In this document: positions 6,201 through 35,373 of the stretch, piece after piece
How the letters are laid out: each line of letters begins with the position of its first letter
How positions within the stretch are numbered: the first letter of the stretch is position 1
Assembly (NCBI GenBank): GCA_041658425.1
Contig: JBBAAF010000001.1
Location: 26,793 to 90,792 of the forward strand
Source of the DNA: Bacteroidales bacterium
GTDB lineage: Bacteria > Bacteroidota > Bacteroidia > Bacteroidales > UBA12481
DNA: 64,000 bases
Direction of reading: 5' to 3'
Position numbers and translations under genes: made by a program
The notes under the pieces: generated by a model
The model's input: only the letters and a program-made list of their open reading frames with translations
What the model was told of the DNA's origin: nothing
Database searches by the model: none

Positions 6201-6446
6201 ATGGAAATCCCGATTATCCGCATCGGAAATTCTAAAGGTATTCGGTTGAGTAAAACGGTCCTTGAACAGTATCAAATCACCGATAAGGTAGAATTGGTGC
6301 TGGAAGAGGATTGTATTGTGCTTAAGCCTTTGACCAAACCAAGAACCGGTTGGGACGAGGCATACAGCCGCATGAATGAGAATGGCGATGATCAGTTGCT
6401 AATCCCGGATGTTTTTCCTGATGAAGAGCCGGAAGAATGGAAATAG
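6201..6446 (+). CDS. mazE: AbrB/MazE/SpoVT-family antitoxin
   Basis: The N-terminus IIRIGNSKGIRLSKTVLEQ is a SpoVT-AbrB swapped-hairpin motif. The C-terminal tail is acidic. It overlaps the toxin gene by 10 nt. Confidence 0.85.
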   Translation: MEIPIIRIGNSKGIRLSKTVLEQYQITDKVELVLEEDCIVLKPLTKPRTGWDEAYSRMNENGDDQLLIPDVFPDEEPEEWK

Positions 6447-6760
6447 TTCAATACCAAATCGCCCTGGTCAACCTGGATTCAACGGTCGGCAGTGAAATTC
6501 AAAAAACCAGGCCTTGTGTGATCATTTCCCCGGATGAGATGAACCGCCACCTTCAGACCGTCGTGGTTGCGCCTTTGACCACTACGTCAAAACCCTATCC
6601 AACAAGAATCAGGATCAGTCATGAAAACACAACGGGGTGGATCGCTGTAGATCAGATCCGTACCATAGACAAAAGCCGGATCATCCGGATTGAGGGCATG
6701 CTTTCTTCATCAGAAATTAAAACCCTCAAATCCATCATCCGGCAAACCTTTGTCGACTAA
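6437..6760 (+). CDS. mazF: PemK/MazF-family endoribonuclease toxin
   Basis: 107 aa. VNLDSTVGSEIQKTRPCVIISPDEMN and VAPLTT are typical of PemK/MazF. Confidence 0.85.
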   Translation: MEIVQYQIALVNLDSTVGSEIQKTRPCVIISPDEMNRHLQTVVVAPLTTTSKPYPTRIRISHENTTGWIAVDQIRTIDKSRIIRIEGMLSSSEIKTLKSIIRQTFVD

Positions 6761-6792
6761 CCTCTAACCTCCTAACCTCTTAACCTTCTCTC
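6759..6792. repeat. Short tandem 7-8 nt array (CCTCTAA/CCTCCTAA/CCTCTTAA) at a convergent gene junction
   Basis: Read directly: cctctaa cctcctaa cctcttaa ccttctc. It contains the sod stop codon and last codons. Confidence 0.85.
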
Positions 6793-7371
6793 CGCTTCTG
6801 CCCAGTTTACAACGTGCCAGAATGCCTCGATATAATCCGGCCTCCGGTTCTGGTAGTTAAGGTAATAAGCATGTTCCCAAACATCCAGGGCAAGGATCGG
6901 GGTACCTTTGACATCGGCGATATCCATCAGCGGATTATCCTGATTCGGGGTTGAGGTGACCACTAATTTGCCGTTAGATTTCACCAGCCAGGCCCAGCCT
7001 GAACCAAACCGCGTAGCTGCGGCAGTGGAGAATTTCTCCTTGAAAGCTTCAAACGATCCAAAATCGGTTTCAATGACTTTCAGCAGTTCCCCGGCAGGCT
7101 TTCCGCCGCCATTCGGCGACATGACCGTCCAGAAAAGGTTGTGGTTGTAAAATCCGCCGCCATTGTTCCGTATCCCTACCGGGTATTTCGATACATGAGC
7201 AAGGATCTCCTCAATACTCAAATTTTCGGCATCAGTACCTGCAACCAGGTTATTCAGGTTGTTGGTATAGGCAGCATGATGTTTGGAGTGATGAATCTCC
7301 ATCGTGCGTGCATCAACGTAAGGCTCCAACGTATCGTAAGCGTACGGTAATTCAGGCAATTTAAATGACAT
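6772..7371 (-). CDS. sodB: Fe/Mn superoxide dismutase
   Basis: [14 protein letters not shown]-like N-terminus, HHSKHH, and [15 protein letters not shown] lies 8 nt upstream of the ATG. The Fe versus Mn assignment cannot be made from sequence. Confidence 0.95.
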
Positions 7372-7451
7372 AATATAATCTCCTTAAAATTTATTACTTA
7401 GACTCATCCTCAATAACAAACTTGTTGAAGGTTTTGTTTAGGCCTCCGTAC

Positions 7452-7531: not shown

Positions 7532-7569
7532 CCCCCTCCTTCATAAGGAGGGGGCAGGGGGAGGTACTT
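7532..7569. repeat. G/C-rich palindromic element, probably the terminator hairpin of the lanB operon. It belongs to the same family as 51584-51720.
   Basis: CCCCCTCCTT cat AAGGAGGGGG is a perfect 10-bp stem. It is followed by cagggggaggtactt, which resembles ccagggggtgggtactt at 51675-51691. It overlaps the stop and last codons of the 7541-8431 CDS. Confidence 0.7.
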
Positions 7570-8431
7570 CACGTTCCTTCCCCCTCGCCTTCGCCGACTC
7601 ATAATACCGGCTCAGAAAATCATACAGTACCAGCTCCTGCAGCCGGTGCCGGGTGCGAAAGGCGCGGTTCAGGCTCATGTGGATCAGATCCGGGAGAAGA
7701 TAGGATTCAAATAATTTTGAGCGGTCGCTGAATGTTTCCTGTAGCTGTTGAATAATCCTTCTTGCATCAGCTGAACGTTTTGCTATAAAAACATCAGGTC
7801 CAGCCGTGCCGGTTTCTATCACCGGATTTAACTCTGCTGAAATTTTCCGGTACTTATCATCCAATTGGCCTTTCATGGTCTTATTTAAACCGAACAAGGA
7901 AGCTGCCGATTCTTTTAACCGATTGACTACGTTTATCTTATCATCAATATTTGCCCCGAAGTCATCAAGAAAAACATCAACGGATCGCAACGCACTTTTC
8001 CATATTTCGGGGTCGTCCTCTCCGGCCCGGCGACTGATCTCATCAAGCCAATAAAGCGAATCAATCTCAAACCAGCTTTCAACCATGGACATGCTCTCAA
8101 CGCCATAACGATCATATTCAGGCTCATAGGTGCCGGCTTCTATCTTCCAGATTAAGTCTTCATCCAGCAGTTCGGTGCAGGAGCGCTGAATCTGATTCAA
8201 CAGGATTCCGGAATGAACCGGATCAGATAATAGAAACCTCAGCCGTAAATGGTACTCCGGATCAAGATAGTGGACAAAATGAAACAGTGTTACCAGAGCT
8301 GATTTTTTCCAGTCTGATAATAGTTCCTGGAACGGACCGGTCATCCACTCCTCTAAAGCCTGCGGCCCACCATAAATTTTGATATATAGCCAGTCGCTTC
8401 CGGGAGGGAATTTCAGTGCGGGTTTTTTCAT
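7541..8431 (-). CDS. LanB C-terminal (SpaB_C, thiopeptide-type) glutamate-elimination domain protein; the small half of a split lanthipeptide dehydratase
   Basis: MKKPALKFPPGSDWLYIKIYGG... and FHFVHYLDPEYHLRLRF are typical of TIGR03891-type domains. The ATG overlaps the upstream TGA as ATGA. The C-terminal PPPAPSL tail is encoded by the repeat. Confidence 0.8.
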   Translation of the reverse strand: MKKPALKFPPGSDWLYIKIYGGPQALEEWMTGPFQELLSDWKKSALVTLFHFVHYLDPEYHLRLRFLLSDPVHSGILLNQIQRSCTELLDEDLIWKIEAGTYEPEYDRYGVESMSMVESWFEIDSLYWLDEISRRAGEDDPEIWKSALRSVDVFLDDFGANIDDKINVVNRLKESAASLFGLNKTMKGQLDDKYRKISAELNPVIETGTAGPDVFIAKRSADARRIIQQLQETFSDRSKLFESYLLPDLIHMSLNRAFRTRHRLQELVLYDFLSRYYESAKARGKEREVPPPAPSL

Positions 8432-10650
8432 GATTTCCGGAAGCAAAATACAAACTGGTTGGCATGTGATCCATCCGGACTTTTTACGGGTGTTCCCGGG
8501 GAAAGATAAAAAGGCCGTATCCTCACAAAGGAGTAATTCCGGATAGTATCCCAAAGAGCCATCAAAAGATTAGAATTGGTCCAGTTGAAATAAAGCTCCT
8601 GATCGGATGACATCCACAACATTTCATCGGGCATTTGCCGCTCATTTTTCCATGCGATCAATTCTGATAAATCGAGCTCATTTCTTTCAATATGAATCCA
8701 TTTGGCAATATCGTCACAGCGAATCAACCAAACCGGAGGCGAAAGGATCAGGTTTTTAAAACGGATTCCCGGTATAAAAGGAGCTTGCCTGATAACCTCA
8801 CCCCAATCGGGTTTGTATGCCAGATCGGGATCCTGCAACTGAATGCGATGCAGGAACTTATAAACAGCCAGGTTACCCAGCTGGTGATTATACGCGTTAG
8901 TCGAATACGGATGAATCTTCTTGCCGGAAGTCGCCGAATAGAGAACAATTCGCTGGTTTTCCATGGCAACCAGCAGATCGGTTACCGGGATCTGCTGATC
9001 CTTGATTTTGGCAGAGCGGGCGAGGTAAGGGATCTCAAAATCCAGAAAAGCCGGCCGCTGCAATACATTACCGGTCCGATCCTCAGGCAGGTGAACCACC
9101 TCTGCAAACACCATATCCGGATAGACAGTTTTCTCCTCTTCTATTAACTGATTAATCCACTCGTGGGTAGAATCGGGATCAGCAAATCCAAAACGACCGA
9201 GCAGGTAAGCAGGATTGCCCGATGATCCATGCAGCAGGTGAATATTCAGTTCACCTGGTGATTCTGGTTCAAACAATTCTACCATGGCTGTCATTTGGGT
9301 TGGCCAGTTTCCATTGTGGATTCCAATCGACTGCAAATCTGATGATTCCAGATTGACATATTGTTGCCCAATCCGGATAACTTCATAAAATCTCCCTACC
9401 AGCCAACCATTTCCCTGATTACCTTCGGCGGAACCGGGACTAAAGGCTGGTCCCCAGCGGAGGTCGTCGATCCATGGTACCGGATCGGTCCAATAGCCCT
9501 CAACTGACCCTTCCAGACCAATACCGGTTTCGGGGTCCAGGGCCTTAACCAGCAATATCTTACGGTCGCCATACCGCTTGATGAAAGAATCCCTGAATCC
9601 TTTCAACACATCGGTGCTGCTGGCTGAAGTCAGGGCTTTAATGATCCGCAGTCCCAGTAAAATCTGACCTGATAGGTGTGAATCGATCGTCATGGCACTG
9701 TTGCTCAATTTCATATCCACCTGTATCAAATGGTTTCGGTTTACATATACCGGTATCGTTGCCAGAATGGGATCAATCATGGGCAGATTCGCCAGAACCG
9801 ACGACGGTTGGTTCATCAGGTCAAAGAGGTTTTTCAACTTCACCAACGATCGGACAACATCATGATTTTCAAACTCCTGAGTGAGCTGAGATATCAGACA
9901 TTCAATGTATTCCGGGCCGCAAATAACCGGCTCTAAACCGGTAACGATAACCTGCGAGTCGACTAGCGATTCCACAAAATCCAGCACTTCCGGTTCAGCC
10001 CATCCGCCGGTTATCAGGTATTTCCGGATCTCGTTCAGATTCCGGCCACCGTAACAGAATTCCAGAATATCTCCGATTACACCGCTATCATCGATGGTCA
10101 CGATATCGTAAATCTTTCTTGATTTTCCGGTCGGGATTTTGACTTCCACATAATGCCATCTCGATCCCACACGATACAAAGAGGTATTCGCCGTAAAAAT
10201 GAGCTTTTCCCGGATGGACCGGTCGGATTCAAGAAGGCGGGCTATACCCATCAGATATTCCATATCCGGTCGGGCATGCAGTTGATGATCAACTCTTTCG
10301 CCCAAATTGACTGCTGTTTCTGATCCGATTTTTCCGGTGGAAAAACCGGCAAAAGTTCCGAATGGTGTGCACCTCGATGAGAACCTGCAGAGGTAACGGA
10401 GAAGGGAATACAATAAGCCTGGATCAGGTAAGGTAGATTTACCTCCATTGAATTCCTGCTCAATTCGCTGACTAAACTCGTAACTTCCCAGCACTAGCCC
10501 TTCCCTGATCAAAGCATCCTTCCACAATTCCTTCAGATAGGGGAATAACTGGTCGGGTGAATCCGGTATGGTAGATAAAAAGTTGACAGGCAATAGCGGA
10601 GCCCTGAGCATGAAATGATCATAAGGATCATAGGTAATACGTTTCCCCAT
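8428..10650 (-). CDS. Lantibiotic dehydratase N-terminal (glutamylation) domain protein; the large half of a split LanB
   Basis: 740 aa. The N-terminus FMLRAPLLPVNF, then LYRYLCR...RCTPFGTFAG, match the Lant_dehydr_N family hallmarks. Confidence 0.85.
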   Translation of the reverse strand: MGKRITYDPYDHFMLRAPLLPVNFLSTIPDSPDQLFPYLKELWKDALIREGLVLGSYEFSQRIEQEFNGGKSTLPDPGLLYSLLRYLCRFSSRCTPFGTFAGFSTGKIGSETAVNLGERVDHQLHARPDMEYLMGIARLLESDRSIREKLIFTANTSLYRVGSRWHYVEVKIPTGKSRKIYDIVTIDDSGVIGDILEFCYGGRNLNEIRKYLITGGWAEPEVLDFVESLVDSQVIVTGLEPVICGPEYIECLISQLTQEFENHDVVRSLVKLKNLFDLMNQPSSVLANLPMIDPILATIPVYVNRNHLIQVDMKLSNSAMTIDSHLSGQILLGLRIIKALTSASSTDVLKGFRDSFIKRYGDRKILLVKALDPETGIGLEGSVEGYWTDPVPWIDDLRWGPAFSPGSAEGNQGNGWLVGRFYEVIRIGQQYVNLESSDLQSIGIHNGNWPTQMTAMVELFEPESPGELNIHLLHGSSGNPAYLLGRFGFADPDSTHEWINQLIEEEKTVYPDMVFAEVVHLPEDRTGNVLQRPAFLDFEIPYLARSAKIKDQQIPVTDLLVAMENQRIVLYSATSGKKIHPYSTNAYNHQLGNLAVYKFLHRIQLQDPDLAYKPDWGEVIRQAPFIPGIRFKNLILSPPVWLIRCDDIAKWIHIERNELDLSELIAWKNERQMPDEMLWMSSDQELYFNWTNSNLLMALWDTIRNYSFVRIRPFYLSPGTPVKSPDGSHANQFVFCFRKS

Positions 10651-10659
10651 GTCCTGATC

Positions 10660-11490
10660 TTATATGATAAAATAATTTTCAGGAACATCATTGATTAATC
10701 CAGCTGCTATCGATTTGTCAATCAGTATCCTAATAGCTCTTTTGCCTTCATCACCCAATTCAACGCTGTATTCATTTACAAAGGTTTTCAAATGGGCATC
10801 CAGAACATCCTGATCCATTGATTGTGCGAATTGCCTCATATAGGGGATGGTTCCCTGCGGATTATCGAGCGCAAATTCCAGACTCTTCCGTACCAGCCGG
10901 TTGACTTTTTCAACCACATCCTGCGGCAACCGCCTGTGCGCCATGATCCCGCCCAAAGGGATCGGGGCATCAGCAGATTCCTCCCAATAATGCCCCAGAT
11001 CGCGCAACAGAACCAATCCCCTCTTCTCGTAAGTGAAACGGTTCTCATGAATCAATACACCGGCATCCGTGAGGCCATCGAGAATGGCCTGTTCTATATC
11101 TGAAAAAACAAAAATCTTCTTTTCCTTGATGTTCGGATAGGCCATCCGCAATAGCAGATTAGCCGTGGTATATTCCCCTGGGATAGCAACCGTCATGCTT
11201 AGATACCGCGGATCCAGACACTGGTTTCTTGCCACCAGCACTGGTCCGCTTCCTTTACCCAGTGCACTGCCCGAATCCAGGATCCGATAATTCTTCCATA
11301 CATGGAGCCAGGCGTGGTAAGAAAGTTTGGTAATATCGAGCTCTCCCTTAAATGCCAGCAAATTCAGATCCTCTACATCAGTGAGATACGGAACAAACTC
11401 AAGATCTTCATTATCGATTTTACCATTCACCAGGGCATCGAAAATAAAGGTATCATTCGGACAGGTACTATAGCCCAGACTTATTTTCAT
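10660..11490 (-). CDS. mqnD: 1,4-dihydroxy-6-naphthoate synthase (futalosine pathway, VitK2_biosynth family)
   Basis: The N-terminus GYSTCPNDTFIFDAL is characteristic of MqnD rather than MqnA (ISYLN). 276 aa. Confidence 0.8.
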   Translation of the reverse strand: MKISLGYSTCPNDTFIFDALVNGKIDNEDLEFVPYLTDVEDLNLLAFKGELDITKLSYHAWLHVWKNYRILDSGSALGKGSGPVLVARNQCLDPRYLSMTVAIPGEYTTANLLLRMAYPNIKEKKIFVFSDIEQAILDGLTDAGVLIHENRFTYEKRGLVLLRDLGHYWEESADAPIPLGGIMAHRRLPQDVVEKVNRLVRKSLEFALDNPQGTIPYMRQFAQSMDQDVLDAHLKTFVNEYSVELGDEGKRAIRILIDKSIAAGLINDVPENYFII

Positions 11491-12098
11491 AATAATCCTG
11501 ATATTACTCTGGTTAATGCCTCAATGGCTTCTTCGGTTTTCCAGCTATGCCGGTCGCGGACTCCAACATAATTGGAGATCGCCCGGATCTGGATCACCGG
11601 GATATCCTCCATTTTGCATACATAAAAAACTGCAGCTCCTTCCATACTCTCGATTTGGGGATTGAATTTATCTGCCAGGCGGGCTTTACGTTCCGGGCCT
11701 GCGGTGACCAGATCCACTGTTATTCCGCTAACGGCTTCGAGTTTGAGCGACCGGTCTTCCGGCACATCCATCCAGCCGTTCCGGAAGGGTTTTTCATCGG
11801 GTTGGTCAATTCCCACATCCACAAAGGTATCACGGATAACCTGCACTACTTCACCTGGTTGCAGGGGAAGGAAATAGCTGCCCGCAATACCGGAATGAAT
11901 TACCTTTTCATATCGGTTGGCTGCAAAATGTTTGGTCAGATTATAAATAACAGGCACGGTTCCGATCCCGGCGATCAATAATTTCCAGCCACTATCTTCT
12001 TTTTGATACACAATCGGATCTTCCGTCTGGGTAAACCCGGCAGATCGAATAAGGGGTAACGCTTCAGTGAGCGATGGAATAATAATCAATTGGCTCAT
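11487..12098 (-). CDS. mqnB: Futalosine hydrolase (PNP/UDP phosphorylase family)
   Basis: 203 aa with IAGIGTV, SGIAGS and [12 protein letters not shown] motifs. It has a 4-nt overlap with mqnD. Confidence 0.75.
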
Positions 12099-12186
12099 TT
12101 ATGGATCAGGATTGATGCCCGAAGTTAATCTTTCTGAACAAAAATTATTCTTTCTTTGTCCTAACATTCTATCAAATATTCACAAA

Positions 12187-15488: not shown

Positions 15489-17234
15489 TTACGCATATTC
15501 AATCTTACTGATTAATGCATCGATCTGGGCAAGGACCTGATGATCTGAAAATTGACGTCCTTTAATGGCAGCCGATGGGCAAGCAGCTACACAAACGCCA
15601 CATGCCTTGCACAGTGCACTGATAATATGGCTTTGCCTTTTTTCTTCGTCGTATTCAATAGCGCTGAACGGACATAGCTTGTTACAGAACCGGCAGCCCG
15701 AGCAAAGATTTTCATCAACTTCGGAGTATACGGCATCAACCTCAATTTTGCCCTTGGATATCTTTGCCAGTATCCGTGCTGCAACTGCCCTTGCTTGTGC
15801 TACTGAATCCGGAATATCTTTGGGTGCCACACAGGTTCCGGCAATAAAGATACCGTCGGTGGTTGTTGCTACAGGTTCCAGTTTCGGATGGCTTTCGATA
15901 AACCATCCGTCTTTATCCTGGCTGATATTGACCAGGTGCGCAACTTCGGCAGAATCCTCACGGGCTTCCATACCTACCATAAGCACAACCAGATCGGCTG
16001 GGATCTCTATGAGCTCACCCGAAAGTTTCTCGTTGACTTCAATCAGCATTTCACAATCGTCCTTCGGACCTGCCCGATGAATAACCGGACGGTCGCCCTT
16101 TTCATACATCAGGAATAAAGTCTTAACCTCTGAGGAGCGTTTGTAGAATTCTTCATGACCTTTGCCGAAAGCGTGCATATCAATATAAATATCTGACACG
16201 TAACTTGCCGGATTGGCAGATTTAATCTCGTGAACATATTTTAGTGCCGTCATGCAGCATACCCGTGAACAGTAGGAATGAAATTCAACATTCCTGCTTC
16301 CGACGCAATGGATAATGGCAACGTATTGCGGAACCTTACCTTCTTTTGTTTCAATGCGGCCGGCACGAATCATCTTTTCCAGTTCAAAAGATGTAATTAC
16401 GTTGGGCAGTTTCCCGTATCCATAATGAGTAACCCGGGAAGCATCAAATTCCTTGTACCCGGTACACACAGCAACACTCCCGATCCGAACTTCAATAGGC
16501 TTAGTCCCCGTACTTTCTTGACCATTCTGTTTCTCGATATTAGCCGTGAAATTGCCGACGAATCCGGTCAGACTGGTCACTTTTGATTGCAGGTGTAACT
16601 GAATCTGCTTGTTGTTGAATACGCGGGTAATACGTTCAGTTAAGAGATCGCGTGCCGAATAAAGGTAGGGAGCGGTAAGATCCACACGCGCCAGATTGCC
16701 GCCTAGGCGGCTATCTTTTTCAACCAGATAGACCAGGTAACCTGAGTCCGCCAGTTCCAGGGCTGTAGTCATTCCCGCAATGCCTCCCCCAATAACCAGC
16801 ACATTCGGACACATATCAACCGAAATACTTTCCAGCGGCTCATGTAGCTCGACGCGCTTAACCGCTGCATAGGTTAAAGCCATGGCTTTTTTTGTTGCCT
16901 CCACCGGATCATCGTGAACCCAGCTGCATTGTTCGCGGATATTCGCCATCTCAAACAGGTACTGGTTTAGACCAGCAGTTCTCAGGGCTCCCCTGAAGGT
17001 TCGCTCATGCATATTTGGACTACAGGCAGCAACAACAATACGGTTGAGCTGGTTTTGTTTAATATCCTGGACGATCATTTCCTGCCCGGGATTCGAACAC
17101 ATATATTTATACGTTTTCACTAAGGTCACATTTGGAATGGTGGATATAAACTTTGCAACTGATTCCACATCCACCATTTTGGCAATGTTGGTGCCACACA
17201 TACATAAATAAACTCCTATTCTGCACTCTTTCAT
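15489..17234 (-). CDS. hdrA: HdrA-like flavoprotein, type 1 (N-terminal Cys domain plus C-terminal 2x[4Fe-4S] ferredoxin domain), module B
   Basis: GVYLCMCGTNIA...VVAACSP; GGGIAG; HCVGSRNVEFHSYCSRVCC; C-terminal CSGCRFCNKLCP and CKACGVCVAACP. Confidence 0.85.
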   Translation of the reverse strand: MKECRIGVYLCMCGTNIAKMVDVESVAKFISTIPNVTLVKTYKYMCSNPGQEMIVQDIKQNQLNRIVVAACSPNMHERTFRGALRTAGLNQYLFEMANIREQCSWVHDDPVEATKKAMALTYAAVKRVELHEPLESISVDMCPNVLVIGGGIAGMTTALELADSGYLVYLVEKDSRLGGNLARVDLTAPYLYSARDLLTERITRVFNNKQIQLHLQSKVTSLTGFVGNFTANIEKQNGQESTGTKPIEVRIGSVAVCTGYKEFDASRVTHYGYGKLPNVITSFELEKMIRAGRIETKEGKVPQYVAIIHCVGSRNVEFHSYCSRVCCMTALKYVHEIKSANPASYVSDIYIDMHAFGKGHEEFYKRSSEVKTLFLMYEKGDRPVIHRAGPKDDCEMLIEVNEKLSGELIEIPADLVVLMVGMEAREDSAEVAHLVNISQDKDGWFIESHPKLEPVATTTDGIFIAGTCVAPKDIPDSVAQARAVAARILAKISKGKIEVDAVYSEVDENLCSGCRFCNKLCPFSAIEYDEEKRQSHIISALCKACGVCVAACPSAAIKGRQFSDHQVLAQIDALISKIEYA

Positions 17235-17254
17235 GACTTCAAATTTTATTTGAT

Positions 17255-18406
17255 CTAATAGGAATAAGCGGGTAAAACAGCTCCCTGTCTTTTCAGGGCT
17301 TCCCGGCGTATCTCAGCAAAATACATCGCGAGTGGCCTGTACACCAGATGTGACCATTTGCTGAAGGGCATCCTCAGTAACCATGGAACCACAGCCATCA
17401 GATGAATGATATAAGTGACGTTAGCGAATTCATTAAGACCGGTGCGATGGAATATGTGCTGACTAATACCAGTCAGGACAATGACAAACAAGAGAATCAC
17501 AAACACCCAGTCCGTACTGTGCGATTTCTTATACTGAACATAGTTTTTTCTGATTAGGCGGTTCCGTATAAAATAGATGGTACCTATTGTCAGCCCGATG
17601 GTTGCCAGGTAGCCGAAAATATGAACGGGCCAGATTATCCGGGGTCCGTATTGCAACTTTTCAACAAACCCCATGACCAAAACAAGCATAATGACATAAC
17701 CCAGCATTAAGCCAAGGTGAACGATCCAGGGCATGAAAACTTTAGTGTTGCGTTTTCTTTCGCATTCTGAATATCTCTTCTGAGAAAAGAAATGCCATAC
17801 CATCAGGTAGAGTTTCTTCGGGTACAACCACCAGGGTACTGGGAAGCTGGTTCCTCTCACCATAACAAAAAACCACATACGCACTGCGTTGATCAGCAGA
17901 AAAACCGCCAGACAAGCGCCGACCAGCAAATCAAAACTATGAATAAAGTGACTTGGCAGGAAGGCCCCTTCCCCATCATAGATACTGAAATTCCCTTGTG
18001 AAAGTCCATAAAATAACAGGAAAGCTCCGGTTAATAAGGCGACTCCGATAACCGCAAGTATCTCAGTGGTCAGGGATTTAAAAAAAAGCCGGGCAATACC
18101 GGTGATATCGTAGCGTGAGATTAGCCATCTTCGCAGGCTCATCATGGTCTCACCCGGGTCCGCTTCGCGGGGACACTGCTCTGAACATTGTCCGCAATAA
18201 TAGCACAGCCATGGTTCCAGGGTGGTTTCAATTTTCCGTCCCAATCCCATCTGCAAATAGCGCATTGACTTTCGCGGAAACCGATATACCTCATCGGCAT
18301 GGAAACAAACAGTCGAACAATCACCGCAGTGATAGCAGAACTTCACGTCTTCGGCTCCAAAACGTTCCAGATCGTCAATTAGCTTTGGATTTACTCTGAT
18401 TGCCAT
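17255..18406 (-). CDS. HdrC-like 2x[4Fe-4S] domain fused to a NarI/HdrE/DsrM-like six-helix membrane domain (QmoC-like), module B
   Basis: CYHCGDCSTVC and CYYCGQCSEQCP, then about 6 hydrophobic helices with conserved His, then C-terminal PFSKWSHLVYRP (NarI-type). AAGGAGGT lies 5 nt upstream of the ATG at 18406. Confidence 0.8.
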   Translation of the reverse strand: MAIRVNPKLIDDLERFGAEDVKFCYHCGDCSTVCFHADEVYRFPRKSMRYLQMGLGRKIETTLEPWLCYYCGQCSEQCPREADPGETMMSLRRWLISRYDITGIARLFFKSLTTEILAVIGVALLTGAFLLFYGLSQGNFSIYDGEGAFLPSHFIHSFDLLVGACLAVFLLINAVRMWFFVMVRGTSFPVPWWLYPKKLYLMVWHFFSQKRYSECERKRNTKVFMPWIVHLGLMLGYVIMLVLVMGFVEKLQYGPRIIWPVHIFGYLATIGLTIGTIYFIRNRLIRKNYVQYKKSHSTDWVFVILLFVIVLTGISQHIFHRTGLNEFANVTYIIHLMAVVPWLLRMPFSKWSHLVYRPLAMYFAEIRREALKRQGAVLPAYSY

Positions 18407-18416
18407 AATGACCTCC

Positions 18417-20219
18417 TTATACAGTATGAATAGTTTTGGCCCTTTTCTCAATCTCGCTCAGGGAGACACTGGACAGATGTCCGATTCCTCTCCCACTGGA
18501 TATGCTGCGTAATACGCCCGCCGCTACAGCAGATGCCTGTGCAACAGTATCGGGGATATCTTTCGGTCCCTGGCACATTCCTGCTACATAAATCCCACCT
18601 TTTTCCGTATCAGTGGGGTTGCCGTTATAATCCAATTCCGAGAACCAGCCATCAGAATCCCTGGTGATTCCTAACATTTTGCTGATTTCTTCAGTACCCG
18701 TTGACGGGATAAGCCCGACAGCCAGTATCACCATATCGACTTTAAATTGAACCATCCGGTCATGGATAATATCTTCACCCTTTACTGTCATCTGTTCATT
18801 GACCATTTCAACCGATGCCGAATGGCCCCGGACTACAAATGTTCCTTCATTCCTGATCCGATCGGCAAATTCTTCGTAACCTTTGCCAAATGCACGCATA
18901 TCAATATAAAATTCATAACATCTGACATCAGGGATCTTTTCTTTGATCAGGTGAGCAAATTTCAGTGAATACATGCAGCAAACGCGGGAGCAGTAGGAGT
19001 TGTATTTATTGTTTCTCGAACCCACACAATGTAAAATTGCCACATTGCGGGGAGGTACCCCTTCGGGAACGAACACCCACTCCTCCAGTTGGGTCTTCCT
19101 GTTGAATAATTTCGTTTTTGTCACAATTCTTCCCCCCGTGCAACCGGAAGCATTGGTAAGGCGTTCAAATTCGATTGAGGTTAGAACATTGGGATATTTT
19201 CCATAACCGTATTGTTCAATCTTCTGTACATCAAGCAATTCATAACCTGTGGCTATGATAATATTACCGACTTCCAGATCGAGAAAAGATTCGGCTTCCG
19301 TTAGGTTAATACATTCCTTGGGGCATTTTTTTGCACAGACACCACATTTTATTCCATTCGAAAGAATATAGGTGCACGAAGCCTCATCGATAAGGTAAGC
19401 ATTGGGCACCGCCTGGGGGAATGGAATATAAACGGCTTTCCTTTTAGTAATTTTTGAATCGAACTCGCTATCTACCTTTACCGGGCATACATCAGAACAT
19501 ATACTACAGGCAACACATGAATCAACATCTATGCGGCGAGGACGCTGATGGATCCTGACACGGTAGGAACCGGGATTCCCGCTAACCTCCGTAACATTGG
19601 AATAGGTAAGCAGCCGGATCATATCATGCTGCCCAATCGAAACCATCTTCGGTGTAAGGATACAAGCTGCACAATCAAGGGTTGGAAAAGTTTTATCAAA
19701 CATAGCCATATGGCCACCTATGGTGCCGGTCTGTTCAACCAGGTAAACCTGTTTACCCGCGTTGGCGATCTCCAGTGACGCCTGGATACCTGCAATTCCC
19801 CCTCCAATAACCAGCGTGGAATGGTTAACCGGATTTCCTGTCGGAATCGCAACCAAGGCAAAAGGGACTCCCATGTTGGCACAGGCAACCGTCGCCTTGG
19901 CCCGGTCGAGCGCGATATCACCCGTTGCCCCGTGCTCTTTGAAAGAAGCCAGTCTGACCTCATCTGTATTACACCTGGCCAACGCCATTGCTTTGGTAAA
20001 AACCGGCTTATAATAGCCAGGCATATCTCCTGCGATTACAATCCTCGTGAGGCTGTTTGTCAGAATCAAATCAGCCAGAAGGGACGCTTTCAAATGAGGT
20101 TTCACTCCAAGGTTCTGAACGATCTCGACCCCGGGCAAGTTAGCTGCATACTTTGCGATTGCATCAATATTGAGATTCTTACCATCCTCTACCTGGCAGA
20201 AAAAAACACCGTTTCGCAT
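18417..20219 (-). CDS. hdrA: HdrA-like flavoprotein, type 2 (degenerate N-terminal domain, DCAAC motif, inserted ferredoxin domain, no C-terminal ferredoxin domain), module B
   Basis: GGGIAGIQASLE, FDKTFPTLDCAACILTPKM, CVACSICSDVCP...CGVCAKKCP, HCVGSRNNKYNSYCSRVCC. AGGAGG lies 7 nt upstream of the ATG. Confidence 0.85.
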   Translation of the reverse strand: MRNGVFFCQVEDGKNLNIDAIAKYAANLPGVEIVQNLGVKPHLKASLLADLILTNSLTRIVIAGDMPGYYKPVFTKAMALARCNTDEVRLASFKEHGATGDIALDRAKATVACANMGVPFALVAIPTGNPVNHSTLVIGGGIAGIQASLEIANAGKQVYLVEQTGTIGGHMAMFDKTFPTLDCAACILTPKMVSIGQHDMIRLLTYSNVTEVSGNPGSYRVRIHQRPRRIDVDSCVACSICSDVCPVKVDSEFDSKITKRKAVYIPFPQAVPNAYLIDEASCTYILSNGIKCGVCAKKCPKECINLTEAESFLDLEVGNIIIATGYELLDVQKIEQYGYGKYPNVLTSIEFERLTNASGCTGGRIVTKTKLFNRKTQLEEWVFVPEGVPPRNVAILHCVGSRNNKYNSYCSRVCCMYSLKFAHLIKEKIPDVRCYEFYIDMRAFGKGYEEFADRIRNEGTFVVRGHSASVEMVNEQMTVKGEDIIHDRMVQFKVDMVILAVGLIPSTGTEEISKMLGITRDSDGWFSELDYNGNPTDTEKGGIYVAGMCQGPKDIPDTVAQASAVAAGVLRSISSGRGIGHLSSVSLSEIEKRAKTIHTV

Positions 20220-20252
20220 TTTATCTCCTCCTGATTAAGGCATTTCCAATAG

Positions 20253-21716
20253 TTAGTTCCTAGTGATACGCTGCAATAATTCCCCATTTACGTCCCGGAT
20301 TTCCAGGATCATGGGCATCTCCCCGGGCAGACTGTGCGTTGCGCACGAAAAGCAGGGATCATACGCTCTGAACGCCATCTCCACCATATTTAATATCCCG
20401 TCGGTTACCGTTATCCCTTTTTTAATCAACCCCTGGGCCGCTTTTTTAATCGACATGGTAATCGCAGCATGATTATTGGTCGTTCCGACAATTATATTGG
20501 CTTTGGTCACAATACCCTTTGCATCCGTCCAGTAATGGTGCGTGAGTGTGCCTCTCTGTGCTTCCACGATCCCAACGCCTTCTCCAACAATTTTATCCAG
20601 CGGGGTCCGAAGTTCTTTCCCTGTGATATCAGCATCCAGAGCCAGTTCAAGACAATGCTCAGCCGCATAAAGCAATTCGATAAGTCTGGCCCAATGCATG
20701 GCAAGGGTTGCATGCACGGGTTTTCCGCCCAGAATCGTGTACATGCGTTCGTACTCTTGTTGAGCAAGCGGTGTGGCCATCCCATCTGATGCGTTTAATC
20801 TTGATAATGGCGTAGCATGGTAAACACCCGAATCTTGTCCTTCGACAAATCCTTTCCATCCGATCTTTTTCAGATACGGGAATTTCAGGTAACTCCATGG
20901 TTCAACCCGTTCCGCCACAAAATCACGATATTCAGCCGGTGAATACTTGCAGAGTTCCTTTCCCTCTGTGTCCACTACCCTTACCTTGCCATCATAAAAA
21001 TTGACTTTGTTATTCGCATCAACGAGCCCCATTGAATGAAGACAAAGGGAATAGGGCCCGTTCAGAATAATATCAACATACTGTTTATTGCTGAGGACGA
21101 CATCCTCGAAAATCTTGAGTGAAAATTGTGCAAATTTTATGAAACCGTTAGATTTCCCGATAATATCATCTCGTTCCAGTTCCGATAGTCCTCTTCTCAC
21201 ACCCCCTGGGATGTTCATCACCACGAAGGTCTGGTGTCCTCCTAATAAAGCCTGGATTTCCTGGGCGAGCCGGCGTTGTTTGATCACTTCCGTTCCGATT
21301 TCAACACCTACCTTATTAATGACACCCAAAATATTTCTTTCTGCCTTCGGAGCCTGAGGTCCGACCACAAAATCCGGTGCTGCGAGTGCATAAAAGTGAG
21401 CAATATGGCTATGAACAAAGTGAGCCATATAAAACAATTCCCTGAGTTTTTTCGCGGTCGGGGGAGGTTGCACACCAAAGACAGCATCGACCGCCTTTCC
21501 GGATGCCATATGATGGCAGCCCGGACACACACCACAAATCTTAGCCACTATGGCCGGTAATTCTTCCACGGGTCTGCCTTCGCAGAATTTTTCAAATCCC
21601 CGAAGTTCCGGGACCTGGAAATACACATTTTTTACATCTCCTTCATCGTCAAGAAAGATTTCAATTTTCCCGTGGCCCTCAAGCCTGGTAATTGGATCGA
21701 TGGTAATTCTTTTCAT
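20253..21716 (-). CDS. mvhA: [NiFe] hydrogenase large subunit, group 3c (MvhA-like), module B
   Basis: N-terminal RLEGHG and KICGVCPGCH. C-terminal DPCFSCATH followed by a ~26 aa cleavable extension. AGGAGG lies upstream of the ATG, and the ATG overlaps the upstream stop as TAATG. Confidence 0.9.
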   Translation of the reverse strand: MKRITIDPITRLEGHGKIEIFLDDEGDVKNVYFQVPELRGFEKFCEGRPVEELPAIVAKICGVCPGCHHMASGKAVDAVFGVQPPPTAKKLRELFYMAHFVHSHIAHFYALAAPDFVVGPQAPKAERNILGVINKVGVEIGTEVIKQRRLAQEIQALLGGHQTFVVMNIPGGVRRGLSELERDDIIGKSNGFIKFAQFSLKIFEDVVLSNKQYVDIILNGPYSLCLHSMGLVDANNKVNFYDGKVRVVDTEGKELCKYSPAEYRDFVAERVEPWSYLKFPYLKKIGWKGFVEGQDSGVYHATPLSRLNASDGMATPLAQQEYERMYTILGGKPVHATLAMHWARLIELLYAAEHCLELALDADITGKELRTPLDKIVGEGVGIVEAQRGTLTHHYWTDAKGIVTKANIIVGTTNNHAAITMSIKKAAQGLIKKGITVTDGILNMVEMAFRAYDPCFSCATHSLPGEMPMILEIRDVNGELLQRITRN

Positions 21717-22690
21717 TATAATCTCCTCCTTATCATTGCGGTAGGAAGACTGAAACGATAAAACGTTCCGGCGGGATCAACAATATCTTCGATTATTGCT
21801 TCAATTTCTGCCGGTTCTTTTGCGTCAATAATGCTCGCTATGGCCGACATGATCTTTGCCCCGGGATCTGCCACATCTGCAGTGGGACCATAACATCCGC
21901 GGCAGGGAGCATTCCCTTTGATGCAACGGTAGCCGCATCCTGACCGGGTGGCAGGTCCCATACAAATTACTTCCTGTTCCATGAAACAGGTAACCCCATC
22001 ATCGTATATTTCCCACGGACGTTTAAATTTCTTAATCAGTTTGTTCTCGGTTTTCGTCCGGATACACTCTTCGCACTGTGCTTTTACCCCTGCTCCGACC
22101 ACGGAGCCTTTGGGTGGCAGTTGTGCACCTGTAACAATAGCCATAAATACTTCGACCAATCGTTCCGTTTGAGGAGGGCATCCCGGAAGATAATAATCTA
22201 CATCCACTACCTTATCAAGAGGACGGACATCGTTATAAAACACAGGGATTTTAAGCGTCCCTTCCGGGACTTCATATTCAGCCTGAGGTTTAATTTTTTC
22301 AGGGTTCACGGTTGATTCACTTTCTTCATATACTCTCCGGAAAATTTCTTCCTTAGTATAAAAATTTGCCATGCCAGGGATTCCGCCGAGGTGGGAACAG
22401 CTACCATAGGCGACGAGGATTTTTGATTTTTTCCTGAGCAGTTTTGCAATATGTTCATTTTCGCTGTTCCTTACAGCTCCGTTGAAAAGAGTGAGATCAA
22501 TATACCCATCATGCATTTCCTCTACATCCTGATACTTGGTATCCAACGCAATAGGCCAGAAAACAAGATCAGCCGCCGCAACTACATCAAAGAGCTTTTC
22601 ATGCACATCCAGTACCGATACACAACACCCTCCACAAGCGGCTCCCCAATAGACGGCCAGTTTGAGTTTAGGTTTCTGTTCGTTCATCAT
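21716..22690 (-). CDS. mvhG: [NiFe] hydrogenase small subunit (MvhG-like), module B
   Basis: WGAACGGCCVSVLD, GSCSHLGGIPG, YLPGCPP, and C-terminal Cys clusters CMGPATRSGCG...APCRGC. Confidence 0.9.
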   Translation of the reverse strand: MMNEQKPKLKLAVYWGAACGGCCVSVLDVHEKLFDVVAAADLVFWPIALDTKYQDVEEMHDGYIDLTLFNGAVRNSENEHIAKLLRKKSKILVAYGSCSHLGGIPGMANFYTKEEIFRRVYEESESTVNPEKIKPQAEYEVPEGTLKIPVFYNDVRPLDKVVDVDYYLPGCPPQTERLVEVFMAIVTGAQLPPKGSVVGAGVKAQCEECIRTKTENKLIKKFKRPWEIYDDGVTCFMEQEVICMGPATRSGCGYRCIKGNAPCRGCYGPTADVADPGAKIMSAIASIIDAKEPAEIEAIIEDIVDPAGTFYRFSLPTAMIRRRL

Positions 22691-22704
22691 TCAGGCGGTT
22701 AAGA

Positions 22705-23130
22705 TTAGGTTAGTTCTTCCATCACTTGTTTTAACCTGCAAGGTCCCAGTTCGGTAATCGTTTCCGTGAAACTATTTACCAGCTCAGCAAATTGCTTTCC
22801 TTCACTGGCACTGATCCATTCCAGTTTGAGCCGCTCCTGTTCGATCCCCATCTGCTGAATATACTTTTGAAGAAGATGATACCTTCGTAAGCAGCGGTAA
22901 TTACCTTCCTGATAATGACAATCGCCAGGATGGCATCCGCAGACCAGCACGCCATCGGCGCCACGGATAAAAGCCCTGAGAACGAATGTTGGTTCAATGC
23001 GGCCTGAGCACATCACCCGGATAGCACGCACGTTGGGCTGGTATTTCATTCGCTGTGTACCGGCAAGATCTGCTCCCGTATATGAACACCAGTTACACAG
23101 AAAGGCTATAATTTGTGGTCTGAATTCCAT
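22705..23130 (-). CDS. mvhD: Methyl-viologen-reducing hydrogenase delta subunit (MvhD/FlpD-like [2Fe-2S] protein), module B
   Basis: [25 protein letters not shown] and [11 protein letters not shown] motifs. Confidence 0.9.
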   Translation of the reverse strand: MEFRPQIIAFLCNWCSYTGADLAGTQRMKYQPNVRAIRVMCSGRIEPTFVLRAFIRGADGVLVCGCHPGDCHYQEGNYRCLRRYHLLQKYIQQMGIEQERLKLEWISASEGKQFAELVNSFTETITELGPCRLKQVMEELT

Positions 23131-23510
23131 CTTTACTTATCTCCCAAATGATCGGTTTGAGTTACGATTTCTTATTCTGCACCAAGAAATTATTCATGCT
23201 GAGGAAGCTAGCACGATTTTAAGAACGAGCTTGTGATTATACCCGGAATGAAAGTAAAACTCCTGACAGTCTATCTGCAGGATGAGGACAATCAAAATGC
23301 CAGCAGGATTCTCCCGCTGGTGTATTATAAGCTATCCAAAATTCTGACCCCAAATCCATTCATCGCGAAGATCAGGGGCATTGCCAGTAGGAATCCTGTA
23401 ACTGGCGGACTGAAAAGGATATATCCCTTTCTTATGTAGAAGGCTAAAACCAGTAAGTGGGTAAGGTACAGTAACTTATTCACACGGATAGGGTTTATGC
23501 GTGATTTTTT

Positions 23511-23852
23511 TCACAAGGTATAAAAAGAACCTATATCTATATTGACCAAAAGATTATTTTTGAAATCAATTGACGAAGATGTGTTTGAGCAGTCATCAAG
23601 ATACTCTTGCCGATTGATGATTTTGGCGGTATCCTGAATCGGGCTAAGGGCGATCAGTCCAGTATTTTTCCCATGTCGGACTTTCAGTAGTATTCCGTTG
23701 TGTCCGTCGAATGAAAACCGGGAGCTGATGAGATTGTGACCCTCGGGGTAAAAACACTCCTTAATAATGATTGCCTTTTTCTGCGGTTTAATGACTCTTT
23801 CCGGAGTTGGAATATATAATGTTCCCTTTGCTGTAAATGCTCTCATATTCAT
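23511..23852 (-). CDS. Hypothetical protein of about 113 aa with no recognisable motif
   Basis: The ORF follows the maturation protease directly. The ATG at 23852 lies 4 nt after the protease stop (the track start is a TTG). It has no Cys, TM or signal features, and its composition is AT-rich. Confidence 0.4.
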   Translation of the reverse strand: MNMRAFTAKGTLYIPTPERVIKPQKKAIIIKECFYPEGHNLISSRFSFDGHNGILLKVRHGKNTGLIALSPIQDTAKIINRQEYLDDCSNTSSSIDFKNNLLVNIDIGSFYTL

Positions 23853-23856
23853 TGTT

Positions 23857-24333
23857 TTAAGCCAAATTATCAAAAACCTGTTCTGTGATTAAGTACTCCT
23901 TTATTTCCTTGAGCATTTCTGGATAGCGGCTCTTTAAGGGTGGTGTCAGTTCATTCGAAAACACCTGGTCTTCGATTATCTCAACTGCGATAATCCGGAT
24001 TTCCTCCGGTAATTTGATATTTAGTTTTTTACCCAGCCTTAGAGCTGTCAGAAAACTAATATCATGGAGATTTGATAAATGCATGGTTTCACGGAAATCA
24101 TCGGGACTGAACAGGTAAACTGAACCCGGGATACCATTTTTTGTCCGGATAGCATCGATCAGGATGGCCTCATCGTATCCGTTGAGGAGTTCAACAATCT
24201 CCAATCCACCCACGCAGGCGCACGCGAAATGAACATTCTGGTTCAGGCAATATTTACTGAGGTCATTGACTAATCTCGGACCTATACCGTCATCAGTCAA
24301 TATTTCATTTCCGATTCCAAGGACCAGCTTCAT
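23857..24333 (-). CDS. Hydrogenase maturation endopeptidase (HyaD/HybD/FrhD family)
   Basis: MKLVLGIGNEILTDDGIGPRL, the DAI motif, and a length of 158 aa. Confidence 0.9.
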   Translation of the reverse strand: MKLVLGIGNEILTDDGIGPRLVNDLSKYCLNQNVHFACACVGGLEIVELLNGYDEAILIDAIRTKNGIPGSVYLFSPDDFRETMHLSNLHDISFLTALRLGKKLNIKLPEEIRIIAVEIIEDQVFSNELTPPLKSRYPEMLKEIKEYLITEQVFDNLA

Positions 24334-24359
24334 TTTTTAATCATGGTTGGGTAATATAA

Positions 24360-25823
24360 TTAATCCCGCTGAATCGAACGAATTATTTTTCCATCAGAAT
24401 CTTTAAAATTAACCAAGAGAGGCATTTGTCCCGGCAAACTGTGTGTTGCACATGAAAAACAGGGATCATAAGCGCGGAAAGCCATCTCGATCTGGTTAAG
24501 AATGCCCTGATCGGGTTCAATACCGGCTTTAATGACATGTTGTGCAGCCTTTTTAAGTGACATGCAAATAGCAGCGTTATTGTTTGTAGTACCTACAATA
24601 ATATTAACTTTAGTTACCACACCTCTCGAATCGGTCCAATAATGGTGGGTTAGCGTACCCCGTTGAGCTTCCACACATCCGACTCCCTCACCGACAATTT
24701 CTTTCAGGTCGGCTCGAAGCTCTTTACCCGTGATTTCCGGATCCTTGATCAGCTCGTTAAATCGTTCAGCAGCATACAATAGCTCAACCAAGCGAGCCCA
24801 ATGCATTGCCAGGGTTGCATTGACAGGTTTCCCGCCGAAGGTACTGAACAATTCCTGGTATGCCTCATTGGCCAATGGGGTGGCCATTCCGTCGGCGGCA
24901 TTAAGCCTCGACAAAGGCGTTGCATGGTAAACGCCTGAATCTTGTCCTTCCACAAACCCCTTCCAGCCGATTTTCCTCAGGTAGGGAAACTTCAGGTATG
25001 ACCAGGGCTCAACACGTTCGGCGATATATTCAAGATAATCGGTAGGATGATATTTAAATTTCTCTTTCCCTTCAGTATCGACCACTCTCACCATTCCATC
25101 GTAGAAATTGACCTTATTGTTTGAATCAACCAGGCCCATGGAGTGAATCTTCAGATTATAAGGACCTTCGAGGATCATGTTAACATAATCATTATTTGCC
25201 AGAACCACATCCCTGAAGAGCTGAAGGCTGAATTTGGCAAATTTCTGAAATCCTTTCCCGGTCGGTATCAATTGATCCCTTTGCTCCTCGGTCAGTCCTT
25301 TCCTGACACCACCCGGGATATTAAGTACCACATGGGTCTGATGCCCCCCAAGCATTGCCTGAATCTCCTGTGCGAGCCTGCGTTGGTGTATAACCTCAGT
25401 CCCGACTTCTATGCCGACTTTAGCAATCACACCGAGGATATTCCTCTCGGAGGGATCGGCATTGGGACCAACCAGAAAATCCGGGGCAGCAAGAGCATAA
25501 AAATGGGCGATATGACTGTGAATAAAATGTGCCATATAGAATAATTCCCTGATTTTCTTCGCCGTAGGGGGTGGTTCCAGGCCAAATACGGCATCTATCG
25601 CTTTGCCGGCCGCCATGTGATGGCATCCCGGACAAACTCCACAAATCTTGGTCACGATCCGCGACATTTCCTCCACAGGCCGTCCTTCGCAGAATTTTTC
25701 GAACCCTCTGAGTTCCGGGACCTGAAAATACACGTTCTCAACATCTCCCTGATCTGTAAGGAAGATTTCAATTTTTCCATGGCCTTCAAGACGGGTTATC
25801 GGATCAATGGTAATCTTTTTCAT
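24360..25823 (-). CDS. mvhA: [NiFe] hydrogenase large subunit, group 3c (MvhA-like), module A
   Basis: It has the same motifs as 20253-21716. By eye it is about 80% identical to that paralog (87 of the first 100 residues). Confidence 0.9.
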   Translation of the reverse strand: MKKITIDPITRLEGHGKIEIFLTDQGDVENVYFQVPELRGFEKFCEGRPVEEMSRIVTKICGVCPGCHHMAAGKAIDAVFGLEPPPTAKKIRELFYMAHFIHSHIAHFYALAAPDFLVGPNADPSERNILGVIAKVGIEVGTEVIHQRRLAQEIQAMLGGHQTHVVLNIPGGVRKGLTEEQRDQLIPTGKGFQKFAKFSLQLFRDVVLANNDYVNMILEGPYNLKIHSMGLVDSNNKVNFYDGMVRVVDTEGKEKFKYHPTDYLEYIAERVEPWSYLKFPYLRKIGWKGFVEGQDSGVYHATPLSRLNAADGMATPLANEAYQELFSTFGGKPVNATLAMHWARLVELLYAAERFNELIKDPEITGKELRADLKEIVGEGVGCVEAQRGTLTHHYWTDSRGVVTKVNIIVGTTNNNAAICMSLKKAAQHVIKAGIEPDQGILNQIEMAFRAYDPCFSCATHSLPGQMPLLVNFKDSDGKIIRSIQRD

Positions 25824-25834
25824 GTCCTGTGGTT

Positions 25835-27267: not shown

Positions 27268-27271
27268 AGTT

Positions 27272-28999: not shown

Positions 29000-29010
29000 A
29001 GCGTTAGAAC

Positions 29011-30201: not shown

Positions 30202-30207
30202 GTCTTT

Positions 30208-32870: not shown

Positions 32871-32882
32871 ATCCGATTGAAA

Positions 32883-35189: not shown

Positions 35190-35373
35190 TATGGCCATTG
35201 TGCAAATAGGTGGGCTAATGATCCAGGCGTCTCTCGATCTGGTTGAGGATATCCGCGTAGGCGATTATGTCCTGATCCATACCGGATTTATTATTCAGAA
35301 GATTTCAATGGAGGAGGCAGAGGAAACTAAAAGACTCATCCGTGAGATTGAAAACCTTAATGATGCTCCATGA
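35146..35373 (+). CDS. hypC: Hydrogenase assembly chaperone HypC/HupF
   Basis: The N-terminus MCLSIPAEV has the invariant Cys2. About 75 aa. It overlaps the hypF 3' end. Confidence 0.9.
   Translation: MCLSIPAEVLSTNSNMAIVQIGGLMIQASLDLVEDIRVGDYVLIHTGFIIQKISMEEAEETKRLIREIENLNDAP

Follow-up and report, generated by a model that had tools for sequence, protein, structure and literature searches.

A split LanB dehydratase pair without nearby RiPP partners behind the futalosine-pathway genes mqnB and mqnD in uncultured Bacteroidales

Results

Four packed genes and their junctions

We analysed a 64,000-nt window, meaning the whole stretch of DNA at hand, from the contig JBBAAF010000001.1 of a Bacteroidales bacterium (assembly GCA_041658425.1); all positions are numbered within this window. 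At 7541-12098 on the minus strand lies a four-gene unit that joins two genes of the futalosine pathway to menaquinone, mqnB and mqnD, to the two halves of a split lantibiotic dehydratase, LanB-N and LanB-C. The first gene, mqnB (11487-12098), encodes a 203-aa protein of the futalosine hydrolase family (PF01048, TIGR03664), and mqnD (10660-11490) encodes a 276-aa 1,4-dihydroxy-6-naphthoate synthase (PF02621, E 1e-66). The third gene, lanB-N (8428-10650), encodes the 740-aa glutamylation half of a class-I-type dehydratase (PF04738). The last gene, lanB-C, starts with the ATG at 8431, stops at 7541 and encodes the 296-aa glutamate-elimination half with its SpaB_C or thiopeptide-type domain (PF14028, TIGR03891). 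The mqnB and mqnD genes overlap by 4 nt, mqnD and lanB-N are separated by a 9-nt gap, and the TGA of lanB-N overlaps the ATG of lanB-C as ATGA. These coordinates reproduce those of the original prediction, a reading of this DNA made earlier from the letters alone, and so do the flanking genes, sod (6772-7371) on the LanB-C side and folE on the mqnB side, except that the gene calls place the true start of folE at 12187 and not at 12067. The divergent intergenic region between mqnB and folE, taken from the gene calls and the sequence, thus spans 88 nt (12099-12186). It carries an A/T-rich TAATTTTTG stretch ~45 nt upstream of the mqnB ATG, and a promoter for the four genes would seem to have room nowhere else. 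The four genes probably form one transcription unit driven from this divergent region.

The LanB split is genuine. In all genomes of the clade described below, the split and the start codon of the second half are kept, mostly with the same ATGA overlap, which rules out a frameshift artefact, as had been argued from the window. The unit had also been described as ending at a perfect 10-bp hairpin. The inverted repeat itself is present (7532-7541/7545-7554, perfect 10-bp arms with a 3-nt loop) and straddles the LanB-C stop codon; a role as a terminator is not supported, since it has no T-tract, was not called by a terminator scan and is not conserved. Among the close relatives examined, L012 alone shares the PPPAPSL tail, and the repeat was seen only there and in the window; the other clade loci compared lack it.

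Both LanB halves look catalytically intact

The calls of a glutamylation domain and a SpaB_C elimination domain were borne out by the profile searches. LanB-N matches PF04738 (Lant_dehydr_N) with E 2.6e-104 over residues 45-693, and LanB-C matches PF14028 with E 1e-54 and, in addition, TIGR03891. A profile built from 25 LanB-N orthologues aligns colinearly with MadB (9g04, E 1e-65), NisB and MibB. The NisB residues R83, R87, T89, D121, D299 and R464, which we take from published mutagenesis to be the glutamylation-essential ones, align to R89, R93, T95, D129, D312 and R486 of LanB-N. All six are invariant in the 25 clade sequences, and five of the six across an 18-sequence super-clade that includes more distant relatives. 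The number of invariant LanB columns is ~140, including all aligned catalytic residues. In LanB-C, the invariant blocks are H61-L-R63-x-R65 (HLRxR), E105..R108-Y-G (PExxRYG) and H251..N255-R256 (HxxxNR), which align to blocks of MadB and MibB and presumably correspond to R786, R826 and H961 of NisB, NisB itself being unaligned at the sequence level.

The AlphaFold2 model of LanB-N (predicted local distance difference test score, pLDDT, 76; predicted template modelling score 0.74) matches MadB, MibB and NisB in Foldseek with template modelling (TM) scores of 0.69-0.74, and TbtB and GodF with a TM score of 0.52. Residues ~152-231 of the model form a beta-strand and three-helix segment (pLDDT ~70-92) that is colinear with the corresponding region of NisB and MadB. 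The equivalent region is where NisB binds the leader peptide. The length of LanB-N stays within 737-743 aa, with no frameshifts, in ~40 homologues. Judged from alignments and the model, both LanB halves look catalytically intact and agree with LanB enzymes in every sequence and structure feature checked. A role in defence was also considered and set aside, as neither half matches a PADLOC defence system.

Identity of MqnB and MqnD

The PF02621 protein is MqnD and not MqnA, because its best match in the Protein Data Bank is MqnD of T. thermophilus (2czl/3a3u, E 1.5e-61), which it covers end to end (residues 3-274 against 4-271); it can be taken as an orthologue of the futalosine-pathway enzyme. 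MqnB reaches 125.4 bits against the equivalog profile TIGR03664 with its cut-off of 124.7, placing it marginally within the family. In the alignment, the window MqnB lacks 14 residues (HGGIFRWIFHENLW) in frame between Q99 and P100, at ~11800. These residues are kept in every relative, including the 93%-identical L012, and their absence explains the marginal score. The gap is either an in-frame deletion or an assembly error, and the function of MqnB in this genome may suffer from it. Neither mqnA nor mqnC nor mqnE appears in the Pfam annotation precomputed for the 64-kb window.

RiPP partner genes are missing nearby

LanB enzymes are, to our knowledge, known almost only from self-contained clusters for peptides that the ribosome makes and that are modified after translation (RiPPs). 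Partner genes were sought across the whole window, using the Pfam annotation already computed for the native 197.6-kb contig. The annotated genes are housekeeping and energy genes only: two MvhADG/Hdr-like hydrogenase sets, hypA-F, BamA/OmpH, POR, gdh, corrinoid methyltransferase genes and a MazF pair. The search for a precursor, LanC, YcaO, protease or transporter gene came up empty both across the 64-kb window and over ±10 kb in >17 related genomes, so the earlier remark that LanC, YcaO, transporter and precursor are missing on either side extends to 64 kb and to the related loci. Neither a leader protease nor an ABC exporter occurs in the 64-kb window, and its Pfam annotation shows no YcaO and no second SpaB_C paralogue. 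With Bacteroidota LanC as query, tblastn gave no match in the window or in any clade locus, and PF05147 is absent from the window annotation. The same kind of search placed LanC no more than 10 kb away in 17 of 20 genome loci with a conventional split LanB (L023-L042), and likewise in L005 and L006. No tRNA and no Rfam match was found in the window.

A precursor peptide was searched for in two ways. Clustering the small open reading frames (ORFs) of 16 loci revealed no conserved small ORF or precursor, with the limit that very short or atypical ORFs could escape, and a motif scan found no LxLxKx5L or FxLD leader followed by a Ser/Thr/Cys-rich core. LxLxKx5L is the leader motif of Bacteroidetes (PMC7268733). 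The spacers between lanB-C and sod are variable, partly of low complexity and non-coding across the clade loci. A precursor was thus found neither in this spacer nor elsewhere within ±10 kb. As a system, the pair does not match the cluster make-up of class I lanthipeptide, thiopeptide or linear azole-containing peptide, or peptide aminoacyl-tRNA ligase (PEARL) pathways.

Some side observations concern these non-coding regions. In one subclade, the lanB-C/sod spacer consists of the short tandem repeats TTAGTGA, CACCCCA and GTGCCCC (L014 13051-13222; L015 13066-13279; L016 13060-13263). The LanB-C of L018 ends in a repetitive KTED/GRQ tail, and the 3' end of lanB-C is a hypervariable spot. A conserved non-coding patch without an Rfam match lies at ~2567-2714 of the window, between the nitroreductase/B12-binding genes and a second sod paralogue. 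It recurs in L011 (~19,700-19,960), L012 (~20,900-21,200) and L019 (~21,700-22,060), and it yields spurious small ORFs on both strands.

The linkage is conserved in one lineage

A word-based protein search recovered a tight LanB-N family from metagenome-assembled genomes of Bacteroidales, 43-100% identical to the window protein and 737-743 aa long; the next matches reach at most 30%. A scan of one genome per GTDB species placed the family in 15 species (L008-L022), all of them uncultured Bacteroidales from freshwater, groundwater or sediment, and further copies lie on metagenome contigs. Wherever a locus reaches far enough, the order folE/mqnB-mqnD-lanBN-lanBC is kept; sod comes next in all clade loci except L002, which is disrupted, and L020, where it has no match. 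The junctions stay tight in all clade loci, with gaps of 2-30 nt or 4-nt overlaps. The mqn-lanB adjacency is thus more than an accident of one genome, a possibility that had been raised at the outset. The wider neighbourhood, including fabD, folE and a methyltransferase/cobW/URO-D block, is equally syntenic in the clade. Therefore, the adjacency within the clade counts as a single inherited event. No mqnB or mqnD was found in ~20 conventional split-LanB loci.

Close relatives keep mqnB and mqnD without LanB

A metagenome scan with MqnD gave just 5 loci. Two close relatives lack the LanB pair. In L059 (Logan SRR29366200), fabD and sod are each 84% and MqnD is 63% identical to the window proteins, the upstream order is hydrogenase, fabD, folE, mqnB-mqnD, and the LanB pair is absent. 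In L061 (JGI 3300037307), MqnD is 57% identical, and sod, GH172, methyltransferase and cobW genes lie downstream, again with the pair absent. In both loci, sod follows mqnD directly over a 113-115 nt spacer with no lanB remnant, and their sod proteins are 91% identical to each other. In the more distant L056 and L060 (MqnD 48-53% identical), folE/mqnB-mqnD is likewise kept and LanB is absent; here the genes downstream of mqnD are unrelated, encoding a HEAT/DNA-alkylation-repair-like protein or a LytTR regulator. The presence of mqnBD without LanB in these four loci indicates that mqnB-mqnD is the older unit and that LanB is an addition, and a dispensable one.

Neighbour-joining trees were computed from MqnB+MqnD (300 bootstraps), MqnB+MqnD+sod and MqnD alone, all from short alignments and with a partial mqnB in L017; a sod-only tree was discarded as invalid because its outgroups lack sod. 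L059 and L061 group together with 100% support for MqnB+MqnD. The LanB-bearing L017 branches off outside a group that unites the core clade with L059/L061 (100% for MqnB+MqnD, 99% for MqnB+MqnD+sod), and groups with L059 and L061 in the MqnD-only tree (79%). LanB-bearing genomes are monophyletic in 0-1% of replicates of the MqnB+MqnD and MqnD-only trees. This non-monophyly points to loss of the pair in L059 and L061, so the simplest history read from these trees would be one acquisition and one clean loss.

The lanB genes are constrained and long resident

The ratio of non-synonymous to synonymous substitution rates (dN/dS) was determined for the genome pairs L014 versus L015 and L014 versus L016, at a synonymous divergence of ~0.7-1.0; the folE values of three pairs were left out as artefacts of an over-extended query. 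The ratio is 0.02 for fabD, 0.025 for folE, 0.035 for mqnD, 0.05 for mqnB, 0.05-0.06 for sod, 0.16 for lanB-N and 0.16-0.20 for lanB-C. The values for lanB-N and lanB-C indicate purifying selection and argue against a relic. The lanB genes evolve 3-8 times faster than their neighbours, with correspondingly weaker constraint. The same gradient appears in amino-acid identity to the window proteins across the clade loci, which is 80-92% for fabD, 79-92% for sod, 58-95% for MqnD, 56-87% for MqnB, 43-92% for LanB-N and 45-90% for LanB-C. By these rates, the lanB genes appear functional and evolve like accessory genes. The lanB genes have the same GC content as their neighbours, both overall and at third codon positions, which indicates that they are long resident and rules out a recent horizontal insertion of the pair.

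sod is separately controlled

A palindromic element of the TTGTTATTTAGAAT-N3-ATCTAAGTAACAA type lies at 7390-7420 on the minus strand, 20-50 nt upstream of sod. It is found upstream of sod in nearly all clade loci (L008-L022) and also in the LanB-less L059 and L061; it is preceded by a AAACAAAA box and is degenerate in L015 and L016. Such a conserved palindrome of its own suggests that sod is controlled separately and marks the downstream boundary of the mqn-lanB unit. Membership of sod in a LanB cassette or operon was ruled out by this element and by the fact that sod adjoins mqnD in L059 and L061. The palindrome is probably the operator or promoter of an oxidative-stress regulator.

More distant LanB relatives

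An exhaustive HMMER search added LanB-N relatives (P0174-P0183) of 31-36% identity, which had escaped the word-based search. In a neighbour-joining tree, they form a super-clade with the tight clade at 100% bootstrap, apart from all LanC-linked LanBs. P0174-P0183 and P0323-P0326 are sister subgroups of this mqn-linked LanB super-clade. Two stretches are strongly conserved across the super-clade, an N-terminal block with an RSTPFG-type motif and a block at ~521-540. A scan of viral contigs for the sister group gave no match.

For the sister groups, linkage to mqnD is inferred from equal contig sizes and overlapping source, not from DNA. LanB-N P0174 and the MqnD homologue P0156 each come from a contig of 24,889 nt in NCBI; P0323 and P0127 each from one of 113,708 nt, with NCBI and ENA as common sources (P0127 also in JGI and Logan); and P0321 and P0169 each from one of 8,874 nt in Logan. 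These three matches come from two further super-clade subgroups, and the MqnD set was obtained by an independent search. The same size-matching recovers 12 known in-clade pairs and yields none for ~37 contigs with conventional LanBs. The matches suggest common contigs for LanB and MqnD in two further subgroups, one of these contigs being just 8.9 kb long.

Other genes of the window

Between the S-methyltransferase gene and sod lies a toxin-antitoxin pair (6201-6446 and 6437-6760, plus strand) with an AbrB/doc-partner-like antitoxin and a MazF/PemK toxin; it is also present in L002 and absent from most clade loci. Two tandem MvhADG-like [NiFe] hydrogenase sets with FAD/Fe-S (Hdr-like) oxidoreductases, plus a full hypA-F, occupy ~15,500-31,970 (minus strand) and 32,235-38,466 (plus strand). 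Relative to L001 and L002, these hydrogenase and hyp genes are inserted between fabD/histidine kinase and gdh. At 39,958-46,489 on the minus strand, two adjoining genes encode giant proteins (1012 and ~1161-1173 aa) that carry PPDK_N along with a weak response-regulator signal; they lie beside gdh in all clade loci.

Discussion

The locus presents an intact LanB pair that forms its own well-separated branch, has no partners found nearby and is inherited vertically inside a housekeeping operon. We consider it moderately probable that the pair is an orphan peptide dehydratase, passed on vertically, that works in trans on a substrate encoded elsewhere and shares a transcript with mqnBD, with no biochemical coupling to menaquinone synthesis. 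According to this reading, a single transcript would run from the folE-mqnB intergenic region through lanB-C, and MqnB and MqnD would keep their ordinary roles in the futalosine route to menaquinone. LanB-N would bind a leader-bearing peptide and esterify its Ser/Thr side chains using glutamyl-tRNA(Glu), and LanB-C, translationally coupled via the ATGA overlap, would remove the glutamate by elimination, giving dehydroalanine or dehydrobutyrine. The gene for the substrate peptide would lie elsewhere in the genome, as would those for any cyclase or exporter. The position behind mqnD would be an old insertion, a hitch-hiking site passed on by vertical inheritance that provides constitutive co-expression only.

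In this reading, the order of the genes and the identity of their domains were observed, as were conserved catalytic residues, purifying selection, a lack of partner genes in the vicinity and close relatives that do without the pair; the co-transcription, the tRNA-dependent peptide dehydration and the distant substrate are what we infer. Several points weigh against it. The distant substrate is an assumption. It is unusual among RiPP genes for a dehydratase to be cut off from all of its cluster and yet persist within a single housekeeping operon. The wider super-clade stands apart from all LanC-linked LanBs, and the contig matches suggest that the mqnD-LanB linkage persists to 31-35% LanB identity, beyond usual neutral synteny.

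An ordinary bacteriocin-type dehydratase of a lanthipeptide or dehydropeptide, whose precursor, LanC and transporter came to lie at one distant locus after rearrangement, is possible, if rather unlikely. This explanation overlaps with the orphan acting in trans and differs from it solely in what lies elsewhere. It is consistent with the closest known-context relatives outside the super-clade, at 29-30% identity, which adjoin LanC (L006), with the presence of LanC in most conventional Bacteroidota split-LanB loci, and with the model of LanB-N, which is nearer to lanthipeptide LanBs than to the thiopeptide and goadsporin enzymes. In addition, class I clusters of Bacteroidetes commonly contain split LanBs (PMC7268733). 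However, no such partner genes lie within the 64 kb here or within ±10 kb in the related genomes, and vertical inheritance at one housekeeping site would be atypical, since bacteriocin clusters are usually patchy and mobile.

A functional linkage is less probable still, and we regard it as doubtful. Here, a LanC-less branch would dehydrate a conserved substrate of the cell that has ties to quinone or redox metabolism, and selection would keep its position in the mqnBD operon; the substrate might be a scaffold peptide or protein used with the futalosine enzymes, or a redox-stress peptide co-regulated with menaquinone. The operon-tight packing in every clade genome, the 100%-bootstrap separation of the super-clade from all LanC-linked LanBs and the conservation of the RSTPFG-type block and the block at ~521-540 across it would fit such a linkage, as would the indirect co-residence with MqnD in two further subgroups, including the 8.9-kb contig. 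If the sister-group adjacency is true, the association is older than the tight clade, and inert synteny would explain it less readily, given that L056 and L060, whose MqnD is similarly diverged, have already lost the downstream synteny. Against it, L059 and L061 keep an intact mqnB-mqnD-sod without LanB, L056 and L060 have mqnBD without LanB, and evolution is 3-8 times faster in the lanB genes than in mqnB and mqnD. All residues for ordinary peptide Ser/Thr glutamylation and elimination are kept, and the sister-group co-residence comes from contig sizes only and not from DNA. In addition, we know of no futalosine-pathway step that needs LanB chemistry. The strongest form of this idea, an ancient LanC-less branch attached to mqnD across family-level divergence that dehydrates a quinone- or redox-linked substrate and is not a bacteriocin enzyme, seems to us slightly less probable again.

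That the pair is a decaying, non-functional remnant of a lost lanthipeptide cluster is very improbable: it is orphaned from all partner genes, comprises the fastest-evolving genes of the region and was lost without a trace in L059 and L061, but its dN/dS of 0.16-0.24 is well below 1, its 737-743 aa length is free of frameshifts in ~40 homologues, its ~140 invariant columns include the aligned catalytic residues, and it is retained across the deep super-clade.

The original prediction had left two alternatives, a substrate encoded elsewhere in the genome or a non-canonical substrate in a housekeeping or quinone-related context. The first is the better one. The second is not favoured, given the LanB-less loci that keep mqnBD, the faster evolution of the lanB genes and the single event behind the clade adjacency. 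Thus, the evidence tilts against a part in menaquinone synthesis, and the LanB pair is probably a passenger at the mqn operon.

If the pair acts in trans on a distant precursor, it is a caution for cluster-based genome mining, which would either miss such a pair or take the mqn genes for tailoring enzymes. If it is instead selection that holds the pair at mqnD, this would imply a non-antibiotic, cellular use of glutamyl-tRNA-dependent dehydration, and, should the quinone/redox explanation be true, a role in primary metabolism for tRNA-dependent LanB chemistry. The LanB-plus genomes and their LanB-minus sisters, L059 and L061, offer a direct comparative route to the substrate.

Known LanB systems resemble the pair in different respects. 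MadB (9g04/9g05), NisB (4wd9/6m7y) and MibB (5ehk) share the fold of LanB-N at TM 0.69-0.74 and are colinear with it over the whole glutamylation domain, with a sequence identity of just ~17-20%. They are single polypeptides of ~1000 aa encoded beside LanA, LanC and LanT, whereas here the enzyme is divided into 740 and 296 aa and such partners were not found nearby. The class I split LanBs of Bacteroidota (pinensin-type; L005/L006 and L023-L042) belong to the same phylum and have the same N/C split, adjoining or overlapping genes and similar lengths of ~730-750 and 280-300 aa (loci here; PMC7268733). In contrast to the pair, they are at most 31% identical to the window protein, fall outside the 100% super-clade, usually have LanC within 10 kb and lack mqnB and mqnD. 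The split enzymes of thiopeptide and goadsporin pathways (TbtB/TbtC, 6ec7/6ec8; GodF, 9jhq) likewise act without LanC, and the match of LanB-C to the 'thiopeptide-type' TIGR03891 is a further likeness to them. However, those systems carry YcaO or azoline-forming enzymes and a precursor, which were not found here, and the TM score is lower, at 0.52. PEARLs have a Lant_dehydr_N-type fold and use aminoacyl-tRNA on a peptide scaffold. They differ in having neither an elimination partner nor glutamylation-type chemistry, whereas here the elimination partner is full, translationally coupled and intact in its motifs.

On the side of menaquinone, the closest comparison is the futalosine pair of Bacteroidota, with the same folE/mqnB-mqnD order and overlapping mqnB and mqnD as in the LanB-less L056, L059, L060 and L061; what sets this lineage apart is the addition of two lanB genes after mqnD. 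We found no literature on a linkage of lanB to futalosine or menaquinone genes, in agreement with the first impression that this operonic linkage had not been described. The kind of enzyme is itself known; what is new here is an orphan, vertically inherited and mqnD-associated branch of LanB.

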